NCBI GenBank assembly: GCA_965223875.1
Contig: OZ245024.1
Span: forward strand, 2,483,211 to 2,547,210
Direction: 5' to 3'
Length of the DNA: 64,000 bases
Origin: Candidatus Multivoradales bacterium
Lineage (GTDB): Bacteria > Acidobacteriota > Thermoanaerobaculia > Multivoradales > JAHEKO01
Shown here: piece after piece, positions 3,532 to 62,544 of the stretch
Numbering within the stretch: position 1 is the first letter of the stretch
How the letters are laid out: each line of letters opens with the position of its first letter
Notes under the pieces: generated by a model
Told to the model about the DNA's origin: nothing
Databases searched by the model: none
What the model saw: the letters and a program-made list of their open reading frames with translations, nothing else
Position numbers and translations under genes: made by a program

Positions 3532-5850
3532 ATGGCAGGAGGGCGTCGGGTAGACTCCGCCGACGTGCTTTGCCCATCGAACCACCGCGCTCTGAAGCAG
3601 CGCCTGGTCGTCTCGGTTGTCGTCCTGATGGCGGCCGGCGGCGGCCTGGCGGCCGACGACGGACCCCACTCGAAGCTGACGATCGAGCGGCTCTACTCGT
3701 TGCCGAACCTCATCGGTACCGCTCCACGCGGCTTCGCCTGGTCGCCGGACGGCGAGCACCTCGCCTTCCTCTGGAACGACGAGGGGCGCAACTTCATGGA
3801 TGTCTGGGTGGTCGACGCGACCGCGGAGAATGGCAAGCCGCGGCGCGTCACGCGGTTTGCGGACACCGCGCCGCCACGCGGGACCGACCAGGCCGGTCGT
3901 GGCGACGACCCCTACGAGGCGGCGGTGGCGCGCGAGGCGGACGAGCGCGACAGCGGAGTCTCTTCGGTCGCCTGGGGTGCCGGAGGGCACCTTCTCGTCG
4001 GCTTCCGGGGCGACCTCTGGAGCATCGATCCCGCGGGCGAGGCGACGACCCGGCTTACGGAGAGCGAGTCCGCGGAGCGAGCCGCGAGCTGGCTGCCGAA
4101 GAGCGATCGCATCGCCTTCCTCAGAGATGGTGATGTCTGGACGATGGACGCGAGCGGGACCGCCGTGCAAGCCACTGAGCTCGCGGGCACCGACACCCGG
4201 GTCGGCAGCTTTCGCTGGTCCCCCGACGGCTCCAGACTGGCCGTCCTCGAGAGCGATCGCCGGGCCGTTCCGGAGCGCTCGATCCCCGACTACCTGACAG
4301 AGGAGCCGGTGCTCCACAAGCTGCGGCGGGCATTCCCCGGCGAGCCCGCTCCCCTCCAGCGCCTCGGAGTCGTCGACCTCTCGGCGGACGGGGCACCGAC
4401 GCCGATCCGCTGGGTCGAGCTGACCGACCCCGCCCCCGACATGCTGCTCTCTTATCGCTGGTCCCCCGACGGGGCCTGGCTTGCGGTTGATACCAGCGAC
4501 CTCTACGCCAAGGACCGCCGGATCTTCCTGGTCGACACGGCGACGCTCGAAGGTCGACTGCTCGAGCGCGACCTCGACCCGGAGAACGAGACCTTCTACT
4601 TCTGGCGCATCGCCTGGGCGACCGACTCGAGCCGGCTCTATTTCCTTTCGGATCGCGACGAGGACTACCACGTCTGGGCCGTGTCACCCGACCGACCCGG
4701 TGAGGCCGAACGGCTCACGCGAGGCTCCTGGGCGGTGGCCGGACTCCACCCCGTGCCGGGAGGCCTGGTCGTGGTCGGCAACAAGGGCCGGCCGGAGGAG
4801 CGCCATCTCTTCTTCGTCGCCGATGGGGGCGGCGACCCCATCCGCCTGAGCCACCGCCCCGGAACCCACTCCCCGACTCTCTCTCCCGACGGTCGCTTCG
4901 CCGCGGTGGCCTTCTCGAGCGACGACACACCACCCGACCTCTGGCTCACCGAGGTTCGCCGCGACGGCTCGGCGAGCGAGACGACCGAGCGCCGTGTCAC
5001 CCGCTCGCCGCTTCCCGAGTTCGGCGACTACCGCTGGGTGACGCCGAGCTACGTCACCTTTCCGAGTCATGTCGACGGAACCACCCTCCACGGCCGGCTG
5101 ACCCTGCCGCCCGACTTCGATCCGGCGAAGACATACCCGGCGATTCTGGGCTCGGTCTACACCGATAGCGTGCGCAACCAGTGGGGTGGTCGCACGGCGC
5201 ATCCGACCTGGGGGCTCGACCAGTTCCTCGCTCAGGAAGGGGCCCAGGAGGGCTACGTGCTGCTCAACGTCGACATGCGCGGGAGCTGGGGGCGTGGCCG
5301 TGAGCATCGCCGCGGCATCCGGCTCGACTACGGCGGCATGGACATCGAGGACCTCGAGAGCGGAGCGCGCTTCCTCGCCGGCACCGGCTACGTCGACCCC
5401 GAGCGCATCGGCATCTGGGGCTCGAGCTACGGCGGACTGATGACCGCCATGTCGCTGTTCAGGAAGCCCGGACTCTACGCCGCCGGCATCGCCGGCGCCC
5501 CGGCCACCAACGTCTGGCACGCGCTGACCGGCCAGATGGCGGTGATGATGCGCCCCGAGGATCAGCCCGAAGAGTACGCCGACTCGTCTCCCTTCCTGCA
5601 CGGCGACGGCCTCGAGGATCCGCTGATGATCATCCACGGAATGCGCGACTGGATCGTCCTCTACAAGGACTCGGTGACCCTGGTGCAGCGACTGATCATG
5701 CTGGGCAAGGAGGACGTCGAGCTGGTGACCCTGCCGAGCGCGGGACACGGCTGGGACAACGAGGGCCTGGCGCAGACGCGATTCGCTTTCCGCAAGATGG
5801 TCGACTTCTTCGACCGGTATCTCGCGGAGCCGGAGGAGGCGACCGAATGA
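3532..5850 (+). CDS. S9 family serine peptidase with N-terminal TolB/DPP-IV-like beta-propeller
   Basis: 772 aa with a hydrophobic N-terminus (VVSVVVLMAAGGGLAADDG), WSPDG repeats, the GSSYGG nucleophile motif and the IHGMRD His motif. The start is uncertain; an internal start is possible. Confidence 0.8.
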   Translation: MAGGRRVDSADVLCPSNHRALKQRLVVSVVVLMAAGGGLAADDGPHSKLTIERLYSLPNLIGTAPRGFAWSPDGEHLAFLWNDEGRNFMDVWVVDATAENGKPRRVTRFADTAPPRGTDQAGRGDDPYEAAVAREADERDSGVSSVAWGAGGHLLVGFRGDLWSIDPAGEATTRLTESESAERAASWLPKSDRIAFLRDGDVWTMDASGTAVQATELAGTDTRVGSFRWSPDGSRLAVLESDRRAVPERSIPDYLTEEPVLHKLRRAFPGEPAPLQRLGVVDLSADGAPTPIRWVELTDPAPDMLLSYRWSPDGAWLAVDTSDLYAKDRRIFLVDTATLEGRLLERDLDPENETFYFWRIAWATDSSRLYFLSDRDEDYHVWAVSPDRPGEAERLTRGSWAVAGLHPVPGGLVVVGNKGRPEERHLFFVADGGGDPIRLSHRPGTHSPTLSPDGRFAAVAFSSDDTPPDLWLTEVRRDGSASETTERRVTRSPLPEFGDYRWVTPSYVTFPSHVDGTTLHGRLTLPPDFDPAKTYPAILGSVYTDSVRNQWGGRTAHPTWGLDQFLAQEGAQEGYVLLNVDMRGSWGRGREHRRGIRLDYGGMDIEDLESGARFLAGTGYVDPERIGIWGSSYGGLMTAMSLFRKPGLYAAGIAGAPATNVWHALTGQMAVMMRPEDQPEEYADSSPFLHGDGLEDPLMIIHGMRDWIVLYKDSVTLVQRLIMLGKEDVELVTLPSAGHGWDNEGLAQTRFAFRKMVDFFDRYLAEPEEATE

Positions 5851-7511
5851 GCCGATCGAGCCAGAAGACTCCGCGAAGCATCGCGCTCGGCCTGGCGGTG
5901 CTCCTGCTCGCCGCCATCCCCGCGGCCGGGTCCGATGACGGATGGGACCGCCTGGTGGAGATCGACGCGGCTCTCATAGAGCTCGGCTCACCGACGCGTG
6001 TCGATGGCGTGCCGCAGCTCGACGAGGCGGCGATCGCCGCAAGACGGGCCGAGCTCGAGCGAGCGAGAGCCGACCTCGCGACCCTCGATCCGTCCGCCTG
6101 GTCGGTGGCGGGCAAGGTCGACTTCCTGCTCGTCTGGGCGCGGGCCAACGCGCTCGAGTTCGAGCACCGGGTGACCCGCCCGTGGGCGCGAGATCCGATC
6201 TTCTGGCTCAACCAGGTGCGCCGCGTGCCCTGGGCCGATGTCGAGGACGAGGATCTCGAGACGTCGCTGGCCGCCGTCGCCCCGACACTGGAGCAGGCGA
6301 GGGCCAGTCTCACCGAGCCGCTCGGCGAGCTCGCGGACCTGGCGATCTTCCACCTCGAGAACTTCGACGGTGTCGGGCAGGGTGAGCCGTATCGTGACGA
6401 TCCGCCGGGGGGGACGATCGCTTGGTACGAGGACTTGTGTGGGCGGATCGCGGAGACGGTCGGGACCACGGCCGGCAGGGACGCCGGCCGCTTCAGGAGT
6501 CTGGGCGAGACGTGCGAGGGGGCGCTCGGGGCGGTTGCGGGTTACCGGGACTGGCTGAAGAGTGAGCGGTCCTCGATGCCGGCCTCGGCGGGCATCGGCA
6601 CCGAGCACCTCGACTGGTACTTCCGTAGCGTCCGCCTGCTTCCCTACGGCGTCGACGAGATGGTTCTGCTCGGCGAGCGGGAGTTCCATCGCTATCGTGC
6701 CGCGTGGGAGATCGCCCGCCGACGCAACCGCGACCTGCCCGAGCTCGAGCTGACGACGAGCCGCCAGCAGCACCAGGAGCGGACACGCGAAGCCGAGCGC
6801 CAGATCCGCGAGCTCGTCGAGGAGCAGGAGCTGCTCACCTTTCCCGAGGACACCCCGGAGAGCTTCGACACCGACACGTTCTGGAGCCCGCGCGCCGAGA
6901 CCGACCGCCACTTCTGGGAGGAGCTCCAGTTCCGCAACACCTTCAACAATCACATCCACGCATCGATCCCGGGGCACCGCTTCGACGGTTCGTTCGCCCG
7001 CCGGGTCGAGAACCCGATTCGTCGGGCCTACCGCGACAGCACCCGCGCCGAGGGCTGGGCCACCTACCTCGAGGAGATGTTCCTCCTCGCCGGCCTGACC
7101 CGCGAGGTACCGCGCGCCGACGAGCTCTTCTACGTCGCCCTGATGAAGCGGGCGAGCCGCATCTACGCCGAGACGAAGATGCAGGCCGGCGAGATGAGCC
7201 TGGCCGAGGCCAACCGCTACATGAGCGACTACGTCCCCTTCATGGAGGAGGACCTCGGCCGCTACGACCTTGAGGGCTACCTGCGCCGGCCGGGCTCGGG
7301 CAGCGGCTACATCATCGGCAAGATCCAGCTCGAGAAGCTGCTCTCGGAACGCTCGCTCGTTCTGGGCGACGACTTCGACCTCGGCGCCTTCCACGACGAC
7401 CTGCTCGGGCGCGGCATGATTCCGTTGACGCTCACGCGCTGGGAGATGACAGGGGCTTCGGACGAGGTCGAGTCGATCTGGGAGGCTGCGGTCGGCACTC
7501 CCTTCGAATAG
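5847..7511 (+). CDS. DUF885-like secreted protein (putative metallopeptidase-like)
   Basis: 4-bp ATGA overlap with the upstream peptidase, and a signal peptide. Motifs HASIPGHRFD and EGWATYLEEMF resemble the DUF885 HE-IPGHH/EGWA signature. Family assignment is from memory, not a search. Confidence 0.5.
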   Translation: MSRSSQKTPRSIALGLAVLLLAAIPAAGSDDGWDRLVEIDAALIELGSPTRVDGVPQLDEAAIAARRAELERARADLATLDPSAWSVAGKVDFLLVWARANALEFEHRVTRPWARDPIFWLNQVRRVPWADVEDEDLETSLAAVAPTLEQARASLTEPLGELADLAIFHLENFDGVGQGEPYRDDPPGGTIAWYEDLCGRIAETVGTTAGRDAGRFRSLGETCEGALGAVAGYRDWLKSERSSMPASAGIGTEHLDWYFRSVRLLPYGVDEMVLLGEREFHRYRAAWEIARRRNRDLPELELTTSRQQHQERTREAERQIRELVEEQELLTFPEDTPESFDTDTFWSPRAETDRHFWEELQFRNTFNNHIHASIPGHRFDGSFARRVENPIRRAYRDSTRAEGWATYLEEMFLLAGLTREVPRADELFYVALMKRASRIYAETKMQAGEMSLAEANRYMSDYVPFMEEDLGRYDLEGYLRRPGSGSGYIIGKIQLEKLLSERSLVLGDDFDLGAFHDDLLGRGMIPLTLTRWEMTGASDEVESIWEAAVGTPFE

Positions 7512-7541
7512 CTATACTCCGCGCCTAAGGGAACCGCCCTC

Positions 7542-9791
7542 TTGATGAGCCGATCCGTTCGTCTGGTCCTGCTGTCTCTGACGCTGTTCCTGGCCCTTTT
7601 TCCGCTGGCCGCGGGACGGCCCGGGCAGCCGCCGACGCTCAAGGCGGACGAGCCGGCCTACATGCTGATGGCGATGAGCCTGGTCGAGGACGGGGATCTG
7701 CGGGCCGAGGAGAAGGACATCCAGAGGGCCTTCGACGAGTTCCCCTACCTGCCGGTCAACAACCTGATCCTGATGACCCCGGACAACTGGCAGACGGTCT
7801 ACTTCGGCAAGCCCTACGTCTACTCGATGTTCGCGGCACCACTGGTCGGTCTGTTCGGCGTGCCCGGATTCCACAGCTTCAACCTGCTGCTGCTGATGGC
7901 GATGGTCGTGATGGGCACGATCTACCTGCGCGAGCACAACTCCGAGACCGTCGCGGCCCTCTTCGCCTGCGCCTTCTTCGTTCTCGGCCCGGCATTCGCC
8001 TACGCCTTCTGGATCCACCCCGAGATCATCAACATGTTCTCGGTCGCGGCCTGTCTCTTCCTGGCGTTCCACCTGCCCTCGCCGCCCGCCGGCTTCGGGA
8101 TCGGAAGCCACCTGCGCGGCGTGCTCGCCGATCCACGCTGGCGTACCGCCGGCTCGGCGGCCGTGCTGGCCATAGCGGTCTACAACAAACCGATGCTCTT
8201 CCTGCTCGGTGTGCCGGCTCTCTGGCTGGTCTTCAAGCGACAGGGCACCCGGGGCGCTCTGACCTGGATCGCCGCCGCGCTCGTCGGCGTGGGCGTCCTG
8301 ATCGGCATCTCGATGGCCTTCACCGGCAAGGCGACCGCCTACCTGGGGGTCGACCGTGGCGGTCTCAAGGTGTTGAGCCCGACCGGGTACGTCGACGCCA
8401 TCGACGATGTCCGCGGCCGCACCGAGCTCCACACCGACGAGGCCGCCAACTCCTGGCACTGGTTGGCTCGTCCGCCGGTGCTCGAAGAGCAATTCCTGGA
8501 GGATCTCGGCTACTTCCTCATCGGAAGGCACACGGGCCTCGTGCCCTACATGCCGCTCGGAGCCCTCGCGGTCCTGCTCTTCCTGCTTCACGGCAGACGC
8601 TTCCGCGAGCGGTGGCTGCTCCTCGCGTCCCTCGCGGTGGTCGCCCTCACCTTCCAGATATGGATCCCGTTCAACTGGCACGGGGGTGGCGGCTTCATCG
8701 GCAACCGCTACTTCGCCAACGCCTATCCGGCGTTCCTCTTCCTGGTGACGGCCGTACGCCCGGTCTGGCTGGCGCTCTCGGGAACCGCCTTCGCCAGTGT
8801 CCTTCTCGGAGCGATCATGGTCACGCCCTGGGGCGCGCCCGTGCCCCAGCCGACGATGCAGGCTCACGTCAGGGGCGGACTGTTCCGCTTCTTCCCTCTG
8901 GAGCTTTCGTTCCGCACCAGGATTCCCGGCTACGACACGTTCGGCTATCGCGGGGTCTCGATCACCGGGCGCAGAGACGTCTTCGAGGTCGCCGACGAGC
9001 AGAACGGCGTCTTCTGGATCCGGGGAGCCACGCGCAGCGAGCTCTGGTTCAGCAGCCTCAAGCCGCTGCCCAAGCTGATCTTCGAGATCGTCAGCCGGGC
9101 GCCCGACAACGAGATCGATGTCGAGGTCGGTGACGTGCGCGAGACACTCGTCTTCGAGGGCGTCGCTGGGCCCCCCGACAACAAACGCCGTGTCGTTCTC
9201 GAGCCCTCGGGGCCGACGAAGACACGTGTCTGGCAGGGGCAGCCAGAGTACATGTACCGCCTCATCGTGGCGCCGCGAACGGGAAGGCACGAGCGCGGCA
9301 ACATGCTCAACGTGAAGGTCAACCCGCTCTTCTACATCGGGGCAGAGGTCGCCTATCTGGGTACCGGCAGCAAGCAGGAGATCGTACGCGAGAACAGGAT
9401 CGAGTGGGTGGAGTGCGACCTTCCGAAGAGCCTGCCCGCCGCCGCACAGGGGATCGAGATCCCGGTGCGAGTTCGCAACACCGGAGTGAGCACCTGGGGC
9501 ATGCGCGGCGCCCGACAGGTGAATCTAGTCTACCGATGGCTGCGCGAGCCCGAGGGTCGGCTCGACTCGCCGCGGGGTCGCGAGACGCTCCACAGCGATG
9601 TCCGGCCGGGCGAGGACCTGTCGAAGTACATGCGCGTCAACACTCCCGAGGAGCCCGGCCGCTATACGCTGGTCTTCGACGCCATCAGGCGCCACGGCAG
9701 CCTGTTCTCGACCCACGGCGGCGACACCTGCCAACGTGAAGTCGACGTCCTTCCGTCCTCCGCCAGCAATCCAGCAGAGGGTGCGCAATGA
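7542..9791 (+). CDS. Polytopic membrane protein, GT-C-like (ArnT/PMT-type) glycosyltransferase candidate with C-terminal beta-sandwich domain
   Basis: At least 10 predicted TM helices in the first about 450 aa, with a DE dipeptide (KADEPAY) at the start of the first extracytoplasmic loop as in GT39/GT83. The about 290-aa C-terminal soluble domain has a VRVRNTG...YRW pattern. Confidence 0.5.
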   Translation: MMSRSVRLVLLSLTLFLALFPLAAGRPGQPPTLKADEPAYMLMAMSLVEDGDLRAEEKDIQRAFDEFPYLPVNNLILMTPDNWQTVYFGKPYVYSMFAAPLVGLFGVPGFHSFNLLLLMAMVVMGTIYLREHNSETVAALFACAFFVLGPAFAYAFWIHPEIINMFSVAACLFLAFHLPSPPAGFGIGSHLRGVLADPRWRTAGSAAVLAIAVYNKPMLFLLGVPALWLVFKRQGTRGALTWIAAALVGVGVLIGISMAFTGKATAYLGVDRGGLKVLSPTGYVDAIDDVRGRTELHTDEAANSWHWLARPPVLEEQFLEDLGYFLIGRHTGLVPYMPLGALAVLLFLLHGRRFRERWLLLASLAVVALTFQIWIPFNWHGGGGFIGNRYFANAYPAFLFLVTAVRPVWLALSGTAFASVLLGAIMVTPWGAPVPQPTMQAHVRGGLFRFFPLELSFRTRIPGYDTFGYRGVSITGRRDVFEVADEQNGVFWIRGATRSELWFSSLKPLPKLIFEIVSRAPDNEIDVEVGDVRETLVFEGVAGPPDNKRRVVLEPSGPTKTRVWQGQPEYMYRLIVAPRTGRHERGNMLNVKVNPLFYIGAEVAYLGTGSKQEIVRENRIEWVECDLPKSLPAAAQGIEIPVRVRNTGVSTWGMRGARQVNLVYRWLREPEGRLDSPRGRETLHSDVRPGEDLSKYMRVNTPEEPGRYTLVFDAIRRHGSLFSTHGGDTCQREVDVLPSSASNPAEGAQ

Positions 9792-9800
9792 GGGGCGCTC

Positions 9801-9900
9801 GATGACGGGGCATCCGGTGACGGGTATTCGGTGACGGGGTATTCGGTGACGGGACATTCGGTGACGGGACATTCGGTGACGGGGCATTCGGTGACGGGGC
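9801..9900. repeat. 15-bp tandem direct repeat array (about 7 copies of ggtgacggg[g][ty]attc)
   Basis: Read directly: gatgacggggcatcc, then ggtgacgggtattc, ggtgacggggtattc, ggtgacgggacattc x2, ggtgacggggcattc, ggtgacggggcc... It lies in the 157-bp gap between the GT-C-like stop and the GT4 start. Confidence 0.8.
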
Positions 9901-9948
9901 CGCGGCGAGGACCCGTGGTGACGACCCACGCGGAGTGAGGACTCCAGA

Positions 9949-11544
9949 GTGACCCAGGACCTCCGCCTCGACTACGTCTCTCCGCTGCCGCCGACGCGCT
10001 CGGGAATCGCCGACTACAGCCGCGACCTTCTGCCCGGGCTCGCGCCCCTGTGTGACCTTCGGGTCATCCGCCTCGAAGATCAGCCGGTCTCCGGCGAGAT
10101 CGAGCGACGCTGGTCGCCGGTTCGCGCCGACGAGCTCGGCGCCGGCGGACGATTGCCGCTCTACCAGATGGGCAACAACCGGCACCACATCGAGGTGTGG
10201 AAGCTCGCCCACCGCCTGCCCGGCGTACTGACCCTGCACGACCTGGTTCTCCACCACCTGCTCATCGAGCTCACTCTGGCCGAAGACGACTTCGACGGCT
10301 ACCTCGAGCGGCTCGAGGTCGATCACGGCTGGTGGGCCGGGCCCGTGGCCGAGGCGCGCCGGGACGTCGATCCGGGCAACGCGGGTGTCTTCGCCCTGCC
10401 GGCGAGGAGGAGCCTCCTGCGCAGCCAGCGAGGCGTCCTGGTTCACAGCCGGTGGGCCGAGCAGTCCCTGCGCGAATCGGACCCGGACGTCGAGGTTCGC
10501 GTGATCCCTATGGGTGTGCCGCTGCCCGACCCCATCGATCGGACCGCAGCCACCGAATGGCGTAGCGCCGCCGGCATACCCGACGGCGCATCTCTCATCG
10601 GCTTGTTCGGCTTCCAGACACCGATCAAGCGCACCGACCGGGCGATCGCCGCGCTCGCCACCGACCGGCTCGCCGACACGCACCTACTGGTCGGCGGCGA
10701 GGTCTCGCGCGGGCTGGACCTCGAGCGAGCGGCTGCCGAGGCCGGCGTCGCCGACCGGGTCCACTTCCTGGGCTTTCTCGACTACGACGAGTTCGAGCTC
10801 GCCATGGGCGCCTGCGATCTGTGTCTCAACCTGCGCTACCCCACCGCCGGGGAGACCTCGGCCTCGCTACTGCGCGAGCTCGCCGTCGGACGCCCGGCGG
10901 TCGTCTCCGACTACGGGCAGTTCGCCGAGCTTCCCGACGAGGTGGCGCTCAAGGTGCCGATCGGTGACGGCGAGGTCGAAGCGCTGGCGGCAAGCGCCGG
11001 TGACCTACTCGGCCAACCGGATCGTCTCGCTGCGATGTCGGAGGCCACGCGCCGCTACATCGTGCGACGACACTCACCGCGCCGGGCGGCCGCGGCCGTG
11101 GTCGAGGCCTGCCGCGAGCTCGCCGAGCTCGATCCCCCCGCACCGCGTCCTTTCCTCGCCCCACGACCGACCAGCCTGGTCTGGCGCGATCTTGCCGGCG
11201 ACCTCTCGGTCACCGGAACGGACCTTCCCTGGAGGGCCGGCGAGGCTCGCCGGCTACGCCTGCGGCTGCGCAACGACAGCTTCGCGCGCTGGCTCTCGGC
11301 CGAGAGCGATCCCGGCGGCGTGATGATCGAGATCCAGTGGCGCGGTGACGCGACGGACGAAGCCACCGAGCGCGCCTGGCTCGAGCTGCCGCGGGATCTG
11401 CCGCCGGACGACTCGATCGACCTCGAGTTTCCGGTCCGGCGGCCCCTCGCCGGGAACCGTGTTCTGGTGGTCGAGCCGCACGTCAAGAAGCGGGGCGGAT
11501 TCAACACCGTCGGCGGACCGACCTGGGCGCTGAGGCTGGAGTGA
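9949..11544 (+). CDS. GT4 (GT-B fold) glycosyltransferase with about 130-aa C-terminal beta-sandwich-like extension
   Basis: The N-terminus MTQDLRLDYVSPLPPTRSGIADYSRDL is a typical GT4 start, and the central GT4 core with a conserved E/G-rich region is present. The C-terminal LRLRLRND...IEIQWRG pattern resembles the C-terminus of the preceding protein. Confidence 0.75.
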   Translation: MTQDLRLDYVSPLPPTRSGIADYSRDLLPGLAPLCDLRVIRLEDQPVSGEIERRWSPVRADELGAGGRLPLYQMGNNRHHIEVWKLAHRLPGVLTLHDLVLHHLLIELTLAEDDFDGYLERLEVDHGWWAGPVAEARRDVDPGNAGVFALPARRSLLRSQRGVLVHSRWAEQSLRESDPDVEVRVIPMGVPLPDPIDRTAATEWRSAAGIPDGASLIGLFGFQTPIKRTDRAIAALATDRLADTHLLVGGEVSRGLDLERAAAEAGVADRVHFLGFLDYDEFELAMGACDLCLNLRYPTAGETSASLLRELAVGRPAVVSDYGQFAELPDEVALKVPIGDGEVEALAASAGDLLGQPDRLAAMSEATRRYIVRRHSPRRAAAAVVEACRELAELDPPAPRPFLAPRPTSLVWRDLAGDLSVTGTDLPWRAGEARRLRLRLRNDSFARWLSAESDPGGVMIEIQWRGDATDEATERAWLELPRDLPPDDSIDLEFPVRRPLAGNRVLVVEPHVKKRGGFNTVGGPTWALRLE

Positions 11545-11568
11545 TAGAACACGGGAGCGGAGTGACGT

Positions 11569-12762
11569 ATGGACACGCCTAGAGTCGACGACGCCGATCT
11601 GAAGACGTGGCGATCCCTATGGGAGGAGGACCGCCGGATCGGAGAATCCGGAGGGTCCGGACCGCTCGGTTTCGTCAAGCGGCTGATCCGCAAGCTGACG
11701 ACCGGTTCCCAGCAGGATCTCTGGGAGCGCCAGCGGCTCTACAACATGTTGATCCAGCACCATCTGGAGGGGCGCCGGGGCCAGCAGGAACGTCTCGGCC
11801 GCCTGATCGATCTCGACGAGCAGCGCGGCAACGAGATCGGCGGCATCTACGAAGAGCTCACCAAGCAGGACCTGCGCCTGCTGCGCCTCGAGCAGATGCA
11901 GGAGACGACGCTCGAGCGCATCGTCGACCACAACGAGACGCTCTACGCCGTTCTCGACCAGAAACTCGACGCCTACCGCCGCCAGGCGGTGGAGCTTCGC
12001 GGCCAGCTCGTCTCGCTCCTCGAGGTGGCGAAGTCCGGCGACGTCTCCGCCCTCTCGGACGCCGTCGAGGAGCAGTCCTACGTCGAGCTCGAGCGGCGCC
12101 ACCGCGGCACCGAGGACGAGATCGGTCATCGCGTCGAGCCCTACCTTCCGTTCCTACCGACCGAGGGCGTGGTCCTCGATCTGGGCTGCGGCCGGGGCGA
12201 GGCTCTGGAGCTGTTCCGCGACCACGGCCTGACCGGCCGCGGCGTCGATTCGAACGCCGAGATGGTGGCGCTGACCCGCGAGAAGGGACTCGAGGCGATC
12301 GAGGGCGACCTCTTCGAGGTGCTGCGCCAGACCGCCGAGGGAAGCCTCGCCGCCGTCGTCTCGTTCCACGTCATCGAGCACCTGCCGGCGGGCGGCATCG
12401 AGCGGCTGGTAAGACTGGCCTGGCGGGCCCTCGCTCCGGGCGGCGTCCTCGTCCTCGAAACACCCAGCCCTCTCTCCGTCGTCGTCGGCGCCCGCAACTT
12501 CTGGCTCGACCCGACCCACCAGCGCCCGGTCCACCCGGAGAGCCTCAAGCTCGCCTACGAGTACGCCGGCTTCGAGCAGGTCGAACGTATCGACCGGCAG
12601 CCCTTCCCCGAAGCCGACCGCCTGCACCAGATCCCCACCGCCGACCTCCCCGAGTCGACGCAGCCCCTGGCCCAGGAGATCAACATCCTCCGCGACCAGC
12701 TCGACGCGCTGCTGCTCGGGTTCCAGGACTTCGGGATGGTGGGGAGGAAACCGGCCGGCTGA
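11569..12762 (+). CDS. Class I SAM-dependent methyltransferase with N-terminal coiled-coil region
   Basis: The about 180-aa N-terminus is heptad-rich (QERLGRLIDLDEQRGNEIGG...LRLLRLEQMQE). Motif I VLDLGCGRGE and the downstream acidic motif are typical of class I MTases. Confidence 0.8.
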   Translation: MDTPRVDDADLKTWRSLWEEDRRIGESGGSGPLGFVKRLIRKLTTGSQQDLWERQRLYNMLIQHHLEGRRGQQERLGRLIDLDEQRGNEIGGIYEELTKQDLRLLRLEQMQETTLERIVDHNETLYAVLDQKLDAYRRQAVELRGQLVSLLEVAKSGDVSALSDAVEEQSYVELERRHRGTEDEIGHRVEPYLPFLPTEGVVLDLGCGRGEALELFRDHGLTGRGVDSNAEMVALTREKGLEAIEGDLFEVLRQTAEGSLAAVVSFHVIEHLPAGGIERLVRLAWRALAPGGVLVLETPSPLSVVVGARNFWLDPTHQRPVHPESLKLAYEYAGFEQVERIDRQPFPEADRLHQIPTADLPESTQPLAQEINILRDQLDALLLGFQDFGMVGRKPAG

Positions 12763-12784: not shown

Positions 12785-15141
12785 TAGTCGACGTGCACCG
12801 CGTCGCTGGTGGTGCAGTTGGCGAGCTCGATCGCCTCCACCCAGCACCGATCGGCCGGCAGGGTGGTCACGGCGCTGCCGTTGCCCGCGCTGTCGGTACC
12901 GATCCAGAGAGGCGGAAGCCGGAAGGGCTCGCCGATCTCGAACTGCGTGCCGTTGCAGAGCGCACCGCCTTTGACCCAGCCACTGTTGTTCGCCGCGGCG
13001 ACGACCCCGGCCTCGGCGTTCACGGGGCCGTTCGAGATGTTGAGCGTCACCTGGCCGGGGCAGGTGCCCTCGGCCTCGAGACGGACGGAGGTGGTGTTGG
13101 TGTACACCCCTTGAGACGAGCCGGCGTGAAGCACCCTCGGACTCGTCGCGGAGACGTAGAGCGAGGAGAACGACCTCACCGCCGGCAGGCTTCCTTCATC
13201 GATGACCTCCCAGGTCGCCGCACCATCGCGGCTGACCCAGATCTTGTCGCCAGCGAGGTAGAGCGTGTCCGGAAGAAGAGGGTCGGCCACCAGGTCGCCG
13301 ATCTTCGACGTCGGCGGCGAGATCTCGTTCCAGGTATCGCCTCCGTCGGATGTTTCGAAGAGCCTGCCCATGAATAGCGTCTGGTCCTGGGCGAACAGGT
13401 AGAGCTTTAGAGGGTTCACGGCATCGATCACGATGGCGTACGGCAGGTAGTCGCCGCCGAGCAACCGCTCGTCCCAGGTCTGGCCTCCGTCCGAAGTTCG
13501 CAGTACGGCGCCGTGTCGACTCCCGACGACAGGGTACCGCCAGACACCAACCCAAATCCGGCCGGGGTTCGCTGGATCAATGACGATCCCATTCGCCAAG
13601 ACATAGCTGTACTCGCTGAGCGCCGGGCGGTAGAGCTCGGTCCACCTCGCTCCCCCATCCGTCGAGCGAAGGATCGCCGGGGCGAGCTCGGAGAGTCCAA
13701 TGTCGAAGCTCCAGTTCGCCGCAACGAGTGTGCTTCGATCGATTGGATGCACGGCGAGGTCGTACACAGCTGGTCCGATGATCCCGAAATCCTGCGGGTT
13801 CAGGATCGGACTCCTCCAGGTCAGACCCCCATCGTCAGAGCGGAGAATGTCGGCGAGGAAGAAGCCTGCCACGCTCAGGTCCGTGACTCCGTAGAACCGG
13901 TTGGGATCGGATGGAGCCGGTACGAACGGATCGACGTCGAACCTCTCGTCGACGAGTGTCCAAGTCGCGCCCTTGTCGGTGGATCGATGGATACCAGGTG
14001 CCATCGAGCTGGAAGCGACAATGGGCGCTGGTACTACGGTGGAGGACCCGACGACGGACGGGTAGGCATCAAGGCCACGAGTCTCCAGGTGCCAGTTGAA
14101 GCCGTGGTCCTCCGAACGAAGGGGTCCCCGGTCGCTACCCGCGACGATCTCGCTCGAGTCGAAAGGACTGAAGGAAAACCCGTGCACCCAGCCAAGTGTC
14201 TGGCCGGGGGTGGTCTCGACCCAGCTGTCGCCGCCGTCCTCAGAGCGGAAGATCGACGTCCGGGTACCGGCGAGCAGTACATTTGTCGACGTTTCGTCGA
14301 GGGCCAACGAAACGCTGTATTCGCCGAGCATCGTGGCCCAAGTCACGCCACGGTCGAGGCTACGGTAGAAGCCACCGGTACTGAATCCGAACAATCGCTC
14401 GGGGTCCTCCGGATCAACGAGCAACCCTCTGAAAGGCAATGCGCGACCCAGCGATACCCAGGAGGCTCCTCCATTGGCGCTCGAATAGAGGTCGCCGCTC
14501 GACACCAGGTAGAGCCTCTGCGTGTCCGAGGGATCCACCGTAATGACCGTGAGATACGGCAGAGGACTCGGCAGACCGTTGTTGATCGGAGACCACGTAG
14601 CGCCTCCATCCGTGGTCTTGAAGGCTCCGCTGTCGTCCGTCGTGAGGTACACCGTATCGGAGTCGTCGGGATCCACAGCGAATGACCGGGAGCCGCTCTG
14701 TGGAGCGACCGGCGCGATGTCCTGCCAGGTCGATCCTCCGTCAGAACTGCGATAGAGCACGATACTCGAACAGCAGACAGTGCCGTGCGCAAAGAAGGTG
14801 CCATCGCGACTCGCCGCCAGCCTCAGGCCCTCGAGCGGTAACCCGGACCGCGACGGCGCCCACGTCCGAGCACCATCAGCGCTTCGGTAGGCCCCATTGC
14901 TCGTGGGTGAGACGAGGACCACATCTTTCGTCAAGGGATCGTGCGCGACCCCCTCGATCCGACCTCCCTCAGGCAGACCCCCGGTCCATTGCCCGCTTCC
15001 GGCCAGGAGCATTCCGGAGCAGACCGAGGCCAGCACGGCCGCGATCACCGCGATCCAGTTCACGCTACGGCGCTTCGGTCGATTCAAGCGCGCCCCTCCA
15101 CCAGCAGGTTTCCGGACACCATGGTCAACGAGCGACTGCAT
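12784..15141 (-). CDS. Secreted BNR/Asp-box repeat protein (double beta-propeller, GH74/sortilin-like architecture)
   Basis: The ORF is trimmed to the internal Met MQSLVDHG, with GAGGAG upstream, followed by a TM/signal segment. At least 11 SxDxGxTW Asp-box motifs are present (SSDGGSTW, TTDGGATW, SANGGASW, SLDRGVTW, SEDGGDSW, STDKGATW, SDDGGLTW, STDGGARW, TSDGGQTW, TSDGGDTW, SRDGAATW). The C-terminal domain is Cys-containing. Confidence 0.75.
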   Translation of the reverse strand: MQSLVDHGVRKPAGGGARLNRPKRRSVNWIAVIAAVLASVCSGMLLAGSGQWTGGLPEGGRIEGVAHDPLTKDVVLVSPTSNGAYRSADGARTWAPSRSGLPLEGLRLAASRDGTFFAHGTVCCSSIVLYRSSDGGSTWQDIAPVAPQSGSRSFAVDPDDSDTVYLTTDDSGAFKTTDGGATWSPINNGLPSPLPYLTVITVDPSDTQRLYLVSSGDLYSSANGGASWVSLGRALPFRGLLVDPEDPERLFGFSTGGFYRSLDRGVTWATMLGEYSVSLALDETSTNVLLAGTRTSIFRSEDGGDSWVETTPGQTLGWVHGFSFSPFDSSEIVAGSDRGPLRSEDHGFNWHLETRGLDAYPSVVGSSTVVPAPIVASSSMAPGIHRSTDKGATWTLVDERFDVDPFVPAPSDPNRFYGVTDLSVAGFFLADILRSDDGGLTWRSPILNPQDFGIIGPAVYDLAVHPIDRSTLVAANWSFDIGLSELAPAILRSTDGGARWTELYRPALSEYSYVLANGIVIDPANPGRIWVGVWRYPVVGSRHGAVLRTSDGGQTWDERLLGGDYLPYAIVIDAVNPLKLYLFAQDQTLFMGRLFETSDGGDTWNEISPPTSKIGDLVADPLLPDTLYLAGDKIWVSRDGAATWEVIDEGSLPAVRSFSSLYVSATSPRVLHAGSSQGVYTNTTSVRLEAEGTCPGQVTLNISNGPVNAEAGVVAAANNSGWVKGGALCNGTQFEIGEPFRLPPLWIGTDSAGNGSAVTTLPADRCWVEAIELANCTTSDAVHVD

Positions 15142-15358: not shown

Positions 15359-16903
15359 CTAGGAGCCTGTCCGAGTAATCCTCGACACGAGGCGTTTGTC
15401 ATGTTGAGATCAGTGCATGGCTAAGAGGTTTCGTTCGTGGGAGATAGATCAGATCTGGCTGCTGCCGCCGTCGGTCCAGGAGTTGGTGCCGGAGGGTCAC
15501 GTGGCGCACTTCGTTCGGGAGACGGTCCGGGAGTCTCTGGACCTGTCGTCGATCCTTGGCGAGTACACCGAGGAGCGAGGGTACCCGCCCTATCACCCGG
15601 TGATGATGACGGCGTTGCTTCTGTACGCCTACACCCAGGGGGTGTACTCGTCGCGGCGCATCGCGCGGGCCTGCGACGAGCGGGTGGACTTCATGGCGGT
15701 GACCGCGATGCAGCGGCCGGACTTTCGCACCATCAGCGACTTTCGCAAGCGGCATCTGCAAGCTTTGGGGGCGCTGTTCGTCCAGGTGCTTCAGCTGTGT
15801 CGTCAGGCCGGTCTGGTCAAGCTGGGGCACGTGGCGTTGGATGGGACGAAGGTGCGGGCCAACGCCTCCAAGCACAAGGCGATGAGCTATGCGCGCATGC
15901 AGAAGGCGGAGCGGGAGCTGGCGGCCGAGGTGGCCGGTTGGTTCGAGCAGGCCGAGGCTGTCGATGCGCGAGAAGACGAGGCGTTCGGTGAGGACAAGCG
16001 CGGTGACGAGCTGCCGGATTGGGTGGCCAACAAGCAGCAACGCCTGGCCAAGATTCGCGAGGCCATGGCGGCTCTGGAAGATGAGGCCCAGCGCAAGGAT
16101 CCTCCCCCGAGCGACCCGGACAAGCCCCGCCGGGGCCGTCCGCGCAAGCATCCTCCGGGAGTGCCCAAGCCGAAGGAGCAGCGCAATTTCACCGATCCGC
16201 AGAGCCGCATCATGAGGACCCCCGATGGGTTCCAGCAGTGCTACAACGCGCAGGCGGCGGTCGATGCAGCTAGCCAGGTGATCGTGGCGCGTGGCGTGAC
16301 GCAGTCGGCCACGGACCGCCATCAGCTCCAGCCGATGGTCGAACAGATCCGGGCCCATACCGGGCAGGATCCCGGCGAGCTGTCGGCCGATTGTGACTAC
16401 TGCTCGGAAGGCAACTTGGCCGAGCTCGAGCGGTGCGGGATTCGAGGCTACGTGGCCACGGGCAAGCAGCAGCACGGCTCGCCGGCACCGGTCGGCTCGC
16501 GTCCTCGCAACGGCCCTCTGACCCAACGCATGCAACGCCGACTCAAGTGTGGTGGGTACCGCAGCCGCTACCGGCTGCGCAAGCACACGGTCGAACCGGT
16601 CTTCGGGCAGGTCAAGAGTGCCCGTGGATTCCGACAGTTCCTTCTGCGGGGCGCCGAGAAGGTCACCGAGGAATGGAGTCTCGTCTGCACCGCGCACAAC
16701 CTGCTCAAGCTGGCTCGAGCAACAGCGCCATGAGGCGCCCCGACGCGGCTTCTCTGCGCTCTTGCGCCGCCGCCGACCTCCTTGGTGGCCCCTTGAGAGC
16801 CGTTTCCGCGCCACCAGCTCGATTGGCCGCCTCTCAGCAACCCAATTCGCTCATCGTGACCAGCGTACCCGTCTCAAACCGCATTAGCCGGACAGGCTCC
16901 TAG
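15359..16903 (+). mobile_element. Insertion sequence, IS5/IS1182 superfamily, with 15-bp perfect terminal IRs
   Basis: Left end ctaggagcctgtccg (15359-15373) is the exact reverse complement of the right end cggacaggctcctag (16889-16903), with about 8 more imperfect bp inward. The palindromic CTAG tetranucleotide at both ends means the TSD/IR boundary is ambiguous. A single transposase ORF lies inside. Confidence 0.8.
15417..16733 (+). CDS. DDE transposase (IS5/IS1182 superfamily)
   Basis: 438 aa. N-terminal transposase InsH-like region (QIWLLPPSVQELVPEGHVAHFV), HVALDGTKVRANAS motif, DDE-type C-terminal region; no internal stops. Confidence 0.85.
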   Translation: MAKRFRSWEIDQIWLLPPSVQELVPEGHVAHFVRETVRESLDLSSILGEYTEERGYPPYHPVMMTALLLYAYTQGVYSSRRIARACDERVDFMAVTAMQRPDFRTISDFRKRHLQALGALFVQVLQLCRQAGLVKLGHVALDGTKVRANASKHKAMSYARMQKAERELAAEVAGWFEQAEAVDAREDEAFGEDKRGDELPDWVANKQQRLAKIREAMAALEDEAQRKDPPPSDPDKPRRGRPRKHPPGVPKPKEQRNFTDPQSRIMRTPDGFQQCYNAQAAVDAASQVIVARGVTQSATDRHQLQPMVEQIRAHTGQDPGELSADCDYCSEGNLAELERCGIRGYVATGKQQHGSPAPVGSRPRNGPLTQRMQRRLKCGGYRSRYRLRKHTVEPVFGQVKSARGFRQFLLRGAEKVTEEWSLVCTAHNLLKLARATAP

Positions 16904-18385: not shown

Positions 18386-18646
18386 TCAGGCCCGGCGCAG
18401 GAAGAACACCAGCTCGTCGCCGTGACGGTACTGGGCGACGATGGCGTGCCCCGAGGTGGCACTGAAAGCGGCCATGTCGATCTCCGCCGCGGGGTCGGTG
18501 GCGACGACCCGCACCACCTCACCCGGGGCCATGCCGGCGAGCGCCTCGCGGGTCCGCAGCACCGGCAGCGGACAGAAGAGCCCGCGACAGTCGACCTCCA
18601 CGGTCGGCGCCGTCGCCAGCTCGCCCTCGAAGTCGACCCGCGTCAT
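18386..18646 (-). CDS. tusA: TusA/SirA-like sulfur-carrier protein
   Basis: MTRVDFEG...DCRGLFCPLPVLRTREAL has the CPxP active-site motif of TusA, about 85 aa. An alternative start at 18703 would add an acidic MLRSDGDGDDGDGDEGGRG N-terminus. Confidence 0.65.
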   Translation of the reverse strand: MTRVDFEGELATAPTVEVDCRGLFCPLPVLRTREALAGMAPGEVVRVVATDPAAEIDMAAFSATSGHAIVAQYRHGDELVFFLRRA

Positions 18647-18734
18647 CCCGCGTCCCCCCTCATCCCCGTCCCCGTCATCCCCGTCCCCGTCAGAACGGAG
18701 CATATACTCCGTCGCGTCTTCGCCGGAGCCGGCC

Positions 18735-29175: not shown

Positions 29176-29532
29176 ACTTCCTCCCCTCTGAGGTTGAAAG
29201 TGCGGCCGCCGAGAATCTCCCACGGGACAGCGCCCAGCGCGCCCCTCGCGCCAAGTCCCGGATAGCCACGACTTACGGTGATTCCCTGGATCGTAATCCC
29301 TGGCGCGCCCCGTGGTCAAACGCTCCGGCAACCTCCTGGTGGCCAGCGACACTCGAACGGATACCGCGTGAGTGGGTCATCGGAGCCGAGATCGAGGCGC
29401 GCTGACGCAGGAATAGCGGGGCTCTGCCGAGCAAGCCCAACGATGGGACCGGCACCGAGGGGGAATCGGCTTCGAGGGGGGATCGGCTTCGAGGGCCGCT
29501 CAGGCGGTATTCGTTTGGGTGTTACAGGGCCA

Positions 29533-30132: not shown

Positions 30133-31266
30133 ATGCGACCACGCCACGTCCTCCTTTCCTGCCTCGCCACCCTCCTCCTCGCCACGTCGGCCGCTACCCA
30201 GCCGGCTGACGGGGCAGCGGAGTCCTCGCAGCTCATCGACCGCATGCTCGACGCGCTCGGGGGCCGCGAAGCCATCGCGGCGGTGAGGAGCCTCTCCGCC
30301 GAGGCCCGCTGTACAGGCCCTGGCGGCGACTTCGACACCTGGATCGACTCGTTCCGGCCCGGGCTGACCTATTTCCGCCAGGAGACCGACGACGGCGCCG
30401 CGGAGATCTGGAGTACCGGGGAGTCGACCTGGCACCTCGACGGGGAGGGTGCGGTCACCGAGTTGCCCGGCCCGACGCGCTACTTCGTCCGCTCCCACGA
30501 GTTCCACCTGCTCCTCTTCGAGATCGAGAGCAGGTTCTCCGACCACCATCTCGGCGCCTGGAGCGAAGTGGGTGCCCGGCGTTGCCGGGAGATCGAGATG
30601 ACCGACGGCTCCGGCCAGCCGGCCTCGCTCTGCGTCGCCGAAAGTGACGGCCTGCCGCTACGGCTCGAGATGAACCCGCAGGGTGCCCAGGGGCCGGTGA
30701 ACATCACCTTCGGCGACTGGCGCGAGATCGGCGACGTCTGGTACTTCTTCCACTTCGATCTCACCGAGGGTTCCGAGCGCACCTTCACCTACGACTACGA
30801 GAGGCTCGAGCCCGACACGGTCGACGCTCTCCGCTTCGTCCGACCCGCCGCGCTGCACCAGCGCGAGGAGCAGGAAGCGCTTCTCGACCTCCTTCGAAGC
30901 GACCGCCGGGCGCATCTCGAGACCGACGCAGCCGCGATCGCCGCCAACGTCGCCGCCACTCTGGTCGAGGTCTCCTCCGGAGCCGTCAGTGTCTCGTCTC
31001 GCCAGGAGGTCGAGTCGCTCTTCACCACGGTGTTCGACGGCGCCGACTACGAGCTCTGGGAAGATACCGAGCCGCCGAAGGTCAGGCTCTCCCGGGACTC
31101 CAGCATGGCCTGGGTGGTGCGGCGGGTACGGGTACGGCGCCAGGCACCTGGTCCCGATGGCGACAGACAGCTCCAGGAGTTCACCAGCGCCTACACCGCC
31201 ACCTACGAGAGACGGGACGGACGGTGGCTGATGACCTCGGTGACCTCGACGTTCCCGTCACCCTGA
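30133..31266 (+). CDS. Secreted protein with C-terminal NTF2/SnoaL-like (DUF4440-like) domain
   Basis: Trimmed to MRPRHVLLSCLATLLLATSAATQ (signal). The C-terminal about 130 aa (SYTATYERRDGRWLM) has the typical NTF2-like ending. Confidence 0.4.
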   Translation: MRPRHVLLSCLATLLLATSAATQPADGAAESSQLIDRMLDALGGREAIAAVRSLSAEARCTGPGGDFDTWIDSFRPGLTYFRQETDDGAAEIWSTGESTWHLDGEGAVTELPGPTRYFVRSHEFHLLLFEIESRFSDHHLGAWSEVGARRCREIEMTDGSGQPASLCVAESDGLPLRLEMNPQGAQGPVNITFGDWREIGDVWYFFHFDLTEGSERTFTYDYERLEPDTVDALRFVRPAALHQREEQEALLDLLRSDRRAHLETDAAAIAANVAATLVEVSSGAVSVSSRQEVESLFTTVFDGADYELWEDTEPPKVRLSRDSSMAWVVRRVRVRRQAPGPDGDRQLQEFTSAYTATYERRDGRWLMTSVTSTFPSP

Positions 31267-60824: not shown

Positions 60825-61442
60825 TTGCACGACTTCTCCTTCACCCGCCTGCAGTACGAGTCCGGTGACTGGGACGTCGATCAGCGGATGCCGTCGAACC
60901 TGCTGAACTCGCTCATCGAGTACACCACCCTGACCGTCGACCCCGAGGAGCATGTGGTGCCGCTGCGCGACGCGGCGGCGCTGCACGCGCCCTTCGCCTA
61001 TCTGTCGGGACACAAGCTGGTGGAGTTCTCCCGTCAGGAGGCCGAGCACTTCCTCAAGCTGGTCGAGAACGGCGGCTTCGTCTTCGTCGACGACTGCAAC
61101 CACGACATCGACGGTTTGTTCGCCAGGAGCTTCGAGTCCCAGATCGAGCGCCTGTTCGGCGAGGGTGAGCTGCGCAAGATCCCGATCGACCATCCGATCT
61201 ACTCTTCGTTCTTCGACTTCGACGAGGGGCCGCCGACGACCTCCTTCGAGCTCAACGGCTGGGGCGACGACCTCGTCCACGAGTACCTGAAGGCGATCGA
61301 GATCGACGGTCGCATCGGCCTGCTCTACAGCAACAAGGACTACGGTTGTGAGTGGGACTACGACTACCGGAACAAGCGTTGGCTGGCGAAGGACAACACC
61401 CGCTTCGGTGTCAACATCGTCATGTACGCTCTGACCGCCTGA
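60825..61442 (+). CDS. DUF4159 domain protein
   Basis: TTG start. LHDFSFTRLQYESGDWDVD...FVFVDDCNHDIDG pattern, typical of DUF4159 proteins found next to MoxR/vWA operons. Confidence 0.65.
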   Translation: MHDFSFTRLQYESGDWDVDQRMPSNLLNSLIEYTTLTVDPEEHVVPLRDAAALHAPFAYLSGHKLVEFSRQEAEHFLKLVENGGFVFVDDCNHDIDGLFARSFESQIERLFGEGELRKIPIDHPIYSSFFDFDEGPPTTSFELNGWGDDLVHEYLKAIEIDGRIGLLYSNKDYGCEWDYDYRNKRWLAKDNTRFGVNIVMYALTA

Positions 61443-61512
61443 CCTTTCCGGCGGCCTGACCCCTTCGACTACCCGACCCCTTCAACTACCCGACCCTTCC
61501 GACGACCCGACA

Positions 61513-62544
61513 ATGGAGAGCGAGATCGACACCAGGGGTGCGACGGCGACCTCCGAAGCCGAGGTCGACCAGCTCCTCGGGGCGCTCGGACGGCTTCGCG
61601 GCGAGATCGGCAAGGCGATCATCGGGCAGGACGAGATCGTCGATCAGCTGCTGGTCGGGCTGCTCGCGGGCGGACACTGCCTGCTCGAGGGCGTGCCGGG
61701 CCTGGCGAAGACCCTGATGGTCCGTTCGCTCGCCTCGGCGACCCATCTGGCCTTCAAGCGCATCCAGTTCACGCCCGACCTGATGCCGAGCGACATCGTC
61801 GGCACCGAGATCCTCGAGGAGGACCACGGCACCGGGCGCCGGGCGTTTCGCTTCGCCCGCGGCCCGATCTTCGCCAACCTGGTTCTGGCCGACGAGATCA
61901 ATCGCAGCCCACCGAAGACCCAGGCCGCCCTGCTCGAGGCGATGCAGGAGCACGAGGTCACCTACGGCGGCGAGACCTACCTGCTCGACGAGCCGTTCTT
62001 CGTCCTGGCGACACAGAACCCGATCGAGCAGACCGGAACCTACCCGCTGCCCGAGGCGCAGCTCGACCGTTTCCTGCTCCAGCTCCGTATCGAGTATCCA
62101 TCGGCCGAGGAGGAGGCCCGCATCCTCGCCGCGACGACCGGTGTCGAGACGCCCGACATCCAGCCGGTGGTCACCGCGGAAGAGATCGTTCGTTGCCAGC
62201 GACTGGTGCGCGAAGTCTTCGTCTCCGACGACCTCCTCGACTACGTGACGCGGCTCGTGCGCGCGTCGAGACCGGCCGAGAGTCCGATCGAGCTGGTGCG
62301 TGACTTCGTCGAGTGGGGTGCCGGTCCGCGCGCCGGGCAGTCCCTTCTTCTGGCGGCCAAGGCCCGCACCCTCCTCGCCGGGCGCCTGGCGGTGACGCTC
62401 GACGAGCTCGAAGCGCTGAGCCTGCCGGTCCTGCGGCATCGCGTCCTGGTCAACTTCAAGGGCCAGGCGGAGGGGGTCACCGCCGACGACGTGACGCGAC
62501 GTCTTCTCGCCGAGGTCGCCTCTCCCGCCAGTCCGCTGGCCTGA
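61513..62544 (+). CDS. moxR: MoxR-family AAA+ ATPase
   Basis: IIGQDEIVDQLLVGLLAGGHCLLEGVPGLAKT Walker A region, followed by the AAA lid. Confidence 0.9.
   Translation: MESEIDTRGATATSEAEVDQLLGALGRLRGEIGKAIIGQDEIVDQLLVGLLAGGHCLLEGVPGLAKTLMVRSLASATHLAFKRIQFTPDLMPSDIVGTEILEEDHGTGRRAFRFARGPIFANLVLADEINRSPPKTQAALLEAMQEHEVTYGGETYLLDEPFFVLATQNPIEQTGTYPLPEAQLDRFLLQLRIEYPSAEEEARILAATTGVETPDIQPVVTAEEIVRCQRLVREVFVSDDLLDYVTRLVRASRPAESPIELVRDFVEWGAGPRAGQSLLLAAKARTLLAGRLAVTLDELEALSLPVLRHRVLVNFKGQAEGVTADDVTRRLLAEVASPASPLA

Follow-up and report, generated by a model that had tools for sequence, protein, structure and literature searches.

What do tandem repeats directly upstream of a glycosyltransferase gene do: do they act on the expression of that gene, or do they only occupy the space in front of it? 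The question is raised by an array in the 64-kb stretch of DNA analysed here (the window), which comes from an uncultured Thermoanaerobaculia bacterium. A sequence-only reading of the window had described about seven 15-bp direct repeats at positions 9801–9900, filling most of the 157-bp gap upstream of the start of a GT4 glycosyltransferase gene (GT4), and both observations were confirmed. Units of 15 bp with the consensus GGTGACGGGGCATTC are arranged head to tail on the plus strand as six full units and an 11-nt partial one (Table 1), and together they account for 100 of the 157 nt that separate GT4 from the preceding gene, UP. Tandem Repeats Finder returned a period of 15, 6.9 copies and 89% matches, with a score of 155 that is the second-highest in the window. 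The word near-perfect, which had been applied to the iterations, proved too strong, as the copies are 89% alike, occur in four variants and include one unit that has lost a base (14 bp). The 9-mer core GGTGACGGG is found seven times in the window, compared to 1.44 expected from shuffled sequences, and 0 of 100 shuffles contained seven copies. Six of the seven cores lie at 9816–9898; the lone further core in the 64 kb is at position 31254 on the minus strand.

The array lies among four co-oriented genes, DUF885, UP, GT4 and a class I methyltransferase gene, which are separated by gaps of 30, 157 and 24 nt and occupy positions 5847–12762, all in one orientation. The methyltransferase gene is probably in the operon of GT4. 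By its GT4 homologs, the window belongs to the Acidobacteriota (class Thermoanaerobaculia), close to MAGs labelled Candidatus Multivoradales. The G+C content is 64–71%, and the UP–GT4 spacer is G+C-rich throughout. The GT4 start agrees with the public gene call P0121, which is 100% identical over 531 aa. No Pfam match was found for UP, an ortholog of which has a weak match to DUF6311. By eye, the C-terminal tails of UP (9320–9791) and GT4 (11200–11544) look alike, each having about 110 aa that are rich in beta structure and show motifs such as ...R(V/L)RN.G...W..., which suggests an accessory domain common to these two proteins of the operon.

Two ways of reading the array as coding sequence were rejected. 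An N-terminal extension of GT4 over the array is incompatible with the GT4 frame, which has stops in every unit and is closed upstream of 9949. A minus-strand ORF at 9525–9929, which would encode NAPSP-type repeats, is unlikely to be a gene, since it overlaps the 3' end of UP in antisense and since the 74-nt strain difference described below is not a multiple of three.

Table 1. Positions of genes, repeat units and translation signals around the UP–GT4 gap (window coordinates)
Feature	Position	Strand	Description
DUF885 gene	5847–7511		Co-oriented with UP and GT4
UP	7542–9791	+	749-aa polytopic membrane protein
UP–GT4 spacer	9792–9948	+	157 nt, UP stop to GT4 GTG; 83 nt in the sister strain, ≤10 nt in distant relatives
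Unit 1	9801–9815	+	GATGACGGGGCATCC; read directly from the sequence
Small ORF	9802–9834	+	MTGHPVTGIR and stop; ATG 10 nt after UP stop; GAGG at 9790–9793, 8 nt upstream of ATG; speculative
Unit 2	9816–9829	+	GGTGACGGG-TATTC, 14 bp; read directly from the sequence
Unit 3	9830–9844	+	GGTGACGGGGTATTC
Unit 4	9845–9859	+	GGTGACGGGACATTC
Unit 5	9860–9874	+	GGTGACGGGACATTC
Unit 6	9875–9889	+	GGTGACGGGGCATTC
Partial unit 7	9890–9900	+	GGTGACGGGGC, 11 nt
Degenerate extra repeat head	9917–9924	+	GGTGACGA; 17 nt past the array; in both strains (window and L086)
GT4 Shine-Dalgarno-like site	9937–9941	+	GAGGA, 7-nt spacer, GTG at 9949–9951; 3' of the array; read directly from the sequence
GT4 glycosyltransferase gene	9949–11544	+	531 aa, GTG start; matches Glycos_transf_1 and Glyco_trans_1_4
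Class I methyltransferase gene	11569–12762	+	24 nt 3' of GT4, co-oriented

Copy number of the array differs between two strains

A search with the GT4 protein gave one match at 96% identity (P0001), encoded on a 23-kb contig (L086; source, ENA ERZ25072999). This contig is collinear with the window over positions 86–20654 at 96–98% DNA identity, and since this is identity at the within-species level, we take L086 to be a second genome of the window's species. A search for further strains, made with the N-terminal 160 aa of GT4 in order to include fragmentary genes, gave none above 71% identity.

In L086, the UP–GT4 gap measures 83 nt and holds about 1.7 copies of the unit (one full unit and a terminal partial one), compared to about 6.9 in the window. 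At the site of the array, L086 reads GATGACGGGGAACTT followed by GGTGACGGGG, after which the shared CCGCGGCGAGG begins. The flanks of the array align base for base between the window and L086, and L086 is shorter by exactly 74 nt, that is, by 4 x 15 + 14. Since the flanks are conserved while the number of units is not, we conclude that copy number varies between strains. The comparison of copy number among strains that the sequence-only reading had proposed therefore returned about two units in L086 against about seven in the window, and not an invariant number, these values being read from two metagenome assemblies that represent two genomes of the species (n = 2).

Because both sequences come from metagenome assemblies and the 14-bp unit could reflect a homopolymer error, copy number might be wrong in one or both of them. 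We find such an artefact hardly credible. The array is only 100 nt long, its units carry ordered internal variants, and its flanks are exactly common to two independent assemblies. Moreover, the L086 unit ends in AACTT, unlike every unit in the window, which argues against L086 being a collapsed version of that array.

The two genomes differ at other places as well. Between DUF885 and UP, L086 (7425–7610, compared with 7497–7504 in the window) has an insertion of about 190 nt that the window does not have, and this insertion consists of one long imperfect palindrome, MITE- or REP-like. Gene content also differs: L086 has two extra genes at 12967–15047, one for a 432-aa unknown protein and one for a Trypsin_2 protease, and the window has an extra 471-aa ORF without Pfam match (15399–16814, minus strand) within 15363–16898.

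The gap is short in distant relatives

We compared the UP–GT4 junction in five other genomes where UP precedes GT4 (L087, L088, L089, L002 and L003; GT4 identity 58–72%). The junction measures -4, 10, 10, 7 and 10 nt, respectively. These overlapping or closely spaced genes indicate that the ancestral UP–GT4 pair was tightly packed, and it was probably translationally coupled. They also indicate that the gap in the window is a recently acquired spacer and not an old promoter region. Taken together with the co-orientation of the genes at 5847–12762, the short gaps in the five relatives are most simply explained if the gap is a spacer between two cistrons of a single operon.

At the orthologous GT4 loci of genome contigs, the array was found in 0 of 80 (≤63% identity). 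In most other Thermoanaerobaculia, GT4 is preceded by prfB, and 12-bp 'repeats' seen upstream of GT4 in several ortholog loci were discarded as they lie inside the prfB coding sequence. Another Thermoanaerobaculia MAG (L049) has a 15-bp repeat of 2.6 copies (CGACGGTGGAAGGAT) at 5969–6007, which runs in frame over the start codon region of GT4 directly after the prfB stop. Here a tandem duplication arose independently, again at the 5' end of a gene of the GT4 family.

Probable growth of the array by slippage

The reading that we favour, with a probability of roughly 65%, is that the array is a near-neutral, lineage-specific VNTR (minisatellite), made by slippage in a derived spacer inside an operon. 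The history would have begun with an ancestor in which UP and GT4 overlapped or lay about 10 nt apart. The species would then have gained a spacer of about 83 nt carrying two GRTGACGGGG decamers with a start-to-start distance of 15 bp. Such a pair is present in L086, and its two decamers look like the seed of the array. Slipped-strand mispairing between the decamers at replication could then have added units one by one, leaving about seven copies in the window genome and about two in the sister strain. Neighbouring units in the window share private variants (TATTC in units 2–3, GGGAC in units 4–5), which is the pattern expected from stepwise duplication of single units by slipped-strand mispairing.

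The pace of this growth can be judged from the substitutions. About three substitutions are present in the 100 nt of the array, and the divergence between the window and L086 is roughly 3%. The match between the two values suggests that the array grew over the timescale of strain divergence and did not act as a fast switch. Other repeats in the window point the same way, in that repeat gain and loss appear to be general in this genome. A 42-bp tandem repeat at 2140–2256 (2.8 copies, 97% matches), situated between convergent genes, is shorter by exactly one unit in L086, and further short arrays fill intergenic gaps at 61458–61511 and 29445–29495. The first of these is a 17-bp repeat of 3.2 copies (GACCCCTTCGACTACCC) in a 70-nt gap between a stop at 61440–61442 and an ATG at 61513, the gene at which is MoxR-like by eye; like the UP–GT4 array, it is a short-unit repeat between co-oriented genes. 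The second is a 17-bp repeat of three copies (GGGATCGGCTTCGAGGG), apparently non-coding and G-rich (G4Hunter about 1.5). The 42-bp repeat is preceded by a perfect palindrome, GTAGTGGAGGGATCCCTCCACTAC.

As for consequences, the array is most likely transcribed within the operon mRNA, and GT4 would be translated from its own GAGGA-N7-GTG site 3' of the array. Both the GAGGA and the GTG are unchanged in L086, whose 7-nt spacer between them differs by one substitution (C in L086 for the T at 9943 of the window). Since this site lies downstream of the repeats and its GAGGA and GTG are the same in both strains, the array probably has little or no function. At most, it would lengthen an unstructured spacer and slightly shift the amount of GT4 relative to UP.

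The array resembles bacterial VNTRs or minisatellites, as used for MLVA, in several features that define them: it has head-to-tail units within the 10–100 bp range in an intergenic spacer, its copy number differs between close genomes with conserved flanks (about 6.9 and 1.7 copies, 74 nt), and its neighbouring units share variants in a manner consistent with slippage. The present case comprises two alleles from two genomes (n = 2) of an uncultured Thermoanaerobaculia bacterium. If the history given above is right, the locus offers a clean example of the birth of a minisatellite, with a proto-repeat in one strain and seven units in another, and its birthplace would be an operon junction that was formerly tightly packed. 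The array could help to tell strains of this uncultured lineage apart, and it warns that a repeat in front of a gene need not be regulatory.

Promoter, leader and binding sites

The sequence-only reading had placed the array in the promoter region of GT4. This interpretation is not supported, both because UP and GT4 are adjacent in the five relatives and because a scan of 9300–10300, which covered sigma-70-type consensus sites, found no sigma-70-like promoter; no intrinsic terminator was found in the same interval. Acidobacterial promoters are poorly known, and the spacer could conceivably contain an internal promoter. The best promoter match seen by eye extends across two units (GTGACG-N18-TATTCG) and agrees at 7 of 12 positions. 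A single 15-bp unit is shorter than the span from -35 to -10 and so has no room for a whole promoter.

A structured leader, another of the roles put forward from the sequence alone, also lacked backing. No Rfam match was obtained in 9000–10500 at E up to 1, and no fold above that of shuffled sequences was seen (z = +0.08 for the window RNA, +1.58 for the L086 RNA and +2.33 for the window DNA). Since these z-scores are positive, shuffled sequences are, if anything, more structured than the spacer.

An iteron-like array, with the units acting as binding sites for a transcription factor or for a replication or partition protein, had likewise been suggested, and the six or seven identical cores GGTGACGGG are regularly spaced, as such sites would be. 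We regard this as highly improbable, however, and the evidence did not uphold it. In the 64-kb window, the array motif is not found upstream of other genes, the single isolated extra core included. It is not found as a repeat in about 1 Mb of related DNA either (89 loci), where the core occurs singly about ten times. Two cores are present in the sister strain and none in more distant relatives. The iterons of replication origins go with a rep gene and an AT-rich element, whereas the neighbours of this array encode a membrane protein, the glycosyltransferase and the methyltransferase, and no rep, par or regulator gene and no AT-rich stretch adjoins it. In addition, a 15-bp spacing puts successive sites on different faces of the helix, and five metagenome contigs with the same 15-bp unit have unrelated contexts.

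These five contigs came from scanning metagenome contigs for exact matches to two units in a row, and none of them (0 of 5) is homologous to the window outside the repeat. The same scan of viral contigs found none. One of the five (L081, an unrelated contig of 48 kb) carries eleven 15-bp units at 755–913, in an array that directly borders the stop codon of a CheY-like receiver gene and is ordered as two copies of GGTGACGGGCTATTC, six of GGTGACGGTCCATCC and two more of GGTGACGGGCTATTC, followed by a partial unit. By eye, genes for a BMC shell protein and for ribosomal protein L21 can also be recognised on L081. The L081 array adjoins a 20-bp perfect inverted repeat. In a second contig (L082), the units lie inside a His/Gly/Pro-rich coding repeat that can be read on the opposite strand, and each of the remaining three contigs has a two-unit site at the end of a gene. 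As a rough estimate, five contigs is about the chance level for a unit with 13 specified bases among the tandem repeats of so large a collection. Since there is no common context and the number of hits may be roughly at chance level, we do not regard these arrays as a family.

Could unit number tune GT4 expression?

Quantitative tuning of GT4 expression by the array is possible by analogy with other bacteria, in which expression-tuning repeats are found directly upstream of surface-glycan genes. The array would then be an expression rheostat or contingency locus, in which the number of units sets the output of GT4 (and of the methyltransferase) through internal promoter geometry or through the 5' leader, and subpopulations would differ in glycan modification. 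The difference of two versus seven copies between conspecific genomes would be expected under this scheme, as would the position of the array, 49 nt upstream of the start of a glycosyltransferase gene. Precedents come from the hmwA promoters of Haemophilus influenzae, where more 7-bp repeats generally mean less transcript (PMC2424069), and from the promoter tandem repeats of Mycobacterium tuberculosis, with units of 54–58 bp that vary within populations (PMC12817950).

On balance, we nevertheless consider such a rheostat unlikely. Promoter-like hexamers were not found in 9300–10300, the gap is a spacer that arose secondarily inside an operon, and the array has about as many substitutions as slow, neutral growth would leave. 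Its units are imperfect (89% matches, four variants), whereas perfect repetition is usual in highly mutable switch tracts. Simple-sequence contingency tracts consist of perfect 1–9 bp units and act by frameshift or by a change in the -35/-10 spacing. The array shares with these loci the association of a repeat tract of strain-variable length with a glycosylation gene, but its units are 15 bp long and imperfect to the extent just given. It may also differ in location: the contingency tracts lie in an ORF or a promoter, while this array is outside the GT4 ORF and any other ORF that it could frameshift, and no sigma-70-like hexamers were found around it (9300–10300).

The two precedents differ from the present case in further respects. 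The M. tuberculosis repeats (dop, lpdA, cysG) are likewise copy-variable and situated shortly upstream of a gene start, but each unit of 54–58 bp carries a promoter, for which a 15-bp unit is too short, and no promoter-like site was seen here (PMC12817950). The H. influenzae hmw1A/hmw2A repeats are likewise copy-variable upstream repeats and precede a surface-adhesin gene; the promoter region that contains them has been mapped and their effect on transcript level measured, whereas the repeats described here are intra-operon with no promoter detected (PMC2424069). By analogy, the array could work like the hmwA repeats, and if unit number does shift GT4 output, repeat-driven expression variation would be extended to free-living Acidobacteriota.

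Tuning might also operate between the cistrons. The length and the G-richness of the spacer, or a short relay ORF (see below) that is kept or broken, would determine how much GT4 and methyltransferase is made relative to UP. We give this variant a rather small chance. If it were true, subpopulations of a free-living soil acidobacterium would differ in their envelope glycan, and a contingency-type mechanism would be found with long units, in a non-pathogen and at the level of translation between cistrons.

A short ORF between UP and GT4

The spacer contains a short ORF that starts closely behind the UP stop (Table 1). In L086, the same ATG (position 9928 of that contig) opens an ORF of 20 codons, MTGNLVTGPRRGPMVTTHAE, whose stop lies 10 nt before the GTG of GT4. 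In the window, the ORF has 10 codons, as the 14-bp unit shifts the frame. If one G is added to the GGG run of unit 2, the window ORF becomes 45 codons long and ends at the same TGA (9936–9938). Since 15 bp corresponds to five codons, gain or loss of whole units keeps this frame.

These observations suggest a MIRU-like relay, in which a short ORF extending from the UP stop to the GT4 start hands ribosomes from UP on to GT4. MIRUs are described as carrying an ORF that is coupled to the downstream gene (PMC12548453), an arrangement that would be matched by the 20-codon ORF of L086, which spans the spacer and has a GAGG 8 nt upstream of its ATG. The window's 5.05-Mb contig is probably a long-read assembly, which makes an error in the G-run (a homopolymer) conceivable. 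Even so, we hold the relay to be improbable. In the window assembly, the ORF has no more than 10 codons; the gaps of 10 nt are not the overlaps typical of coupling; GT4 has a Shine-Dalgarno-like site of its own; the element is not dispersed within the 64-kb window or L086; and two sequences (n = 2) are too few to judge coding constraint.

The likeness to MIRUs is limited in other ways. Both are tandem repeats between operon genes and may carry a short stop-to-start ORF (PMC12548453; PMC3184786). However, MIRU units measure about 40–100 bp, compared to 15 bp here, and occur at about 40–50 loci per genome (PMC3184786), whereas no second array was found in the 64-kb window or in L086. MIRUs couple genes by an overlap of -4 nt (PMC12548453). 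The array shares the position between cistrons with them, but in place of overlaps the L086 ORF has 10-nt gaps, and the window ORF is broken by the 14-bp unit.

G-quadruplex potential of the array and of a second site

The G-runs that recur every 15 nt could fold into a G-quadruplex, either on the non-template DNA strand or within the mRNA, and so modulate the transcription or translation of GT4. There are eight runs of at least three G on the sense strand, 11–12 nt apart; the relaxed pattern G3+N1–12 is matched at 9779–9824 and 9836–9884, and the best 25-nt G4Hunter window scores 1.52. We nonetheless judge a role for such a structure to be very improbable. Quadruplexes with three long loops are weak, and the standard pattern (loops ≤7 nt) is not matched. 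The mean G4Hunter score over the array is 1.06, so that, with a maximum of 1.52, the array falls short of a canonical G-quadruplex (loops ≤7 nt or G4Hunter clearly above 1.5). Furthermore, the sister strain has too few G-runs in the array itself, and a far stronger motif is present elsewhere in the window, at 18635–18696 (score -2.48).

This other motif, GACGGGGACGGGGATGACGGGGACGGGGATGAGGGGGG on the minus strand, has the short loops of a canonical G-quadruplex motif, and none of the other window regions checked gave a more extreme G4Hunter score. It is located directly upstream of the ATG (18646–18644) of an 86-aa TusA gene, in a divergent gap shared with the pyruvate kinase gene, and is kept in L086 except for a 2-nt indel. 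The decamer GATGACGGGG is common to this motif and to unit 1 of the array.
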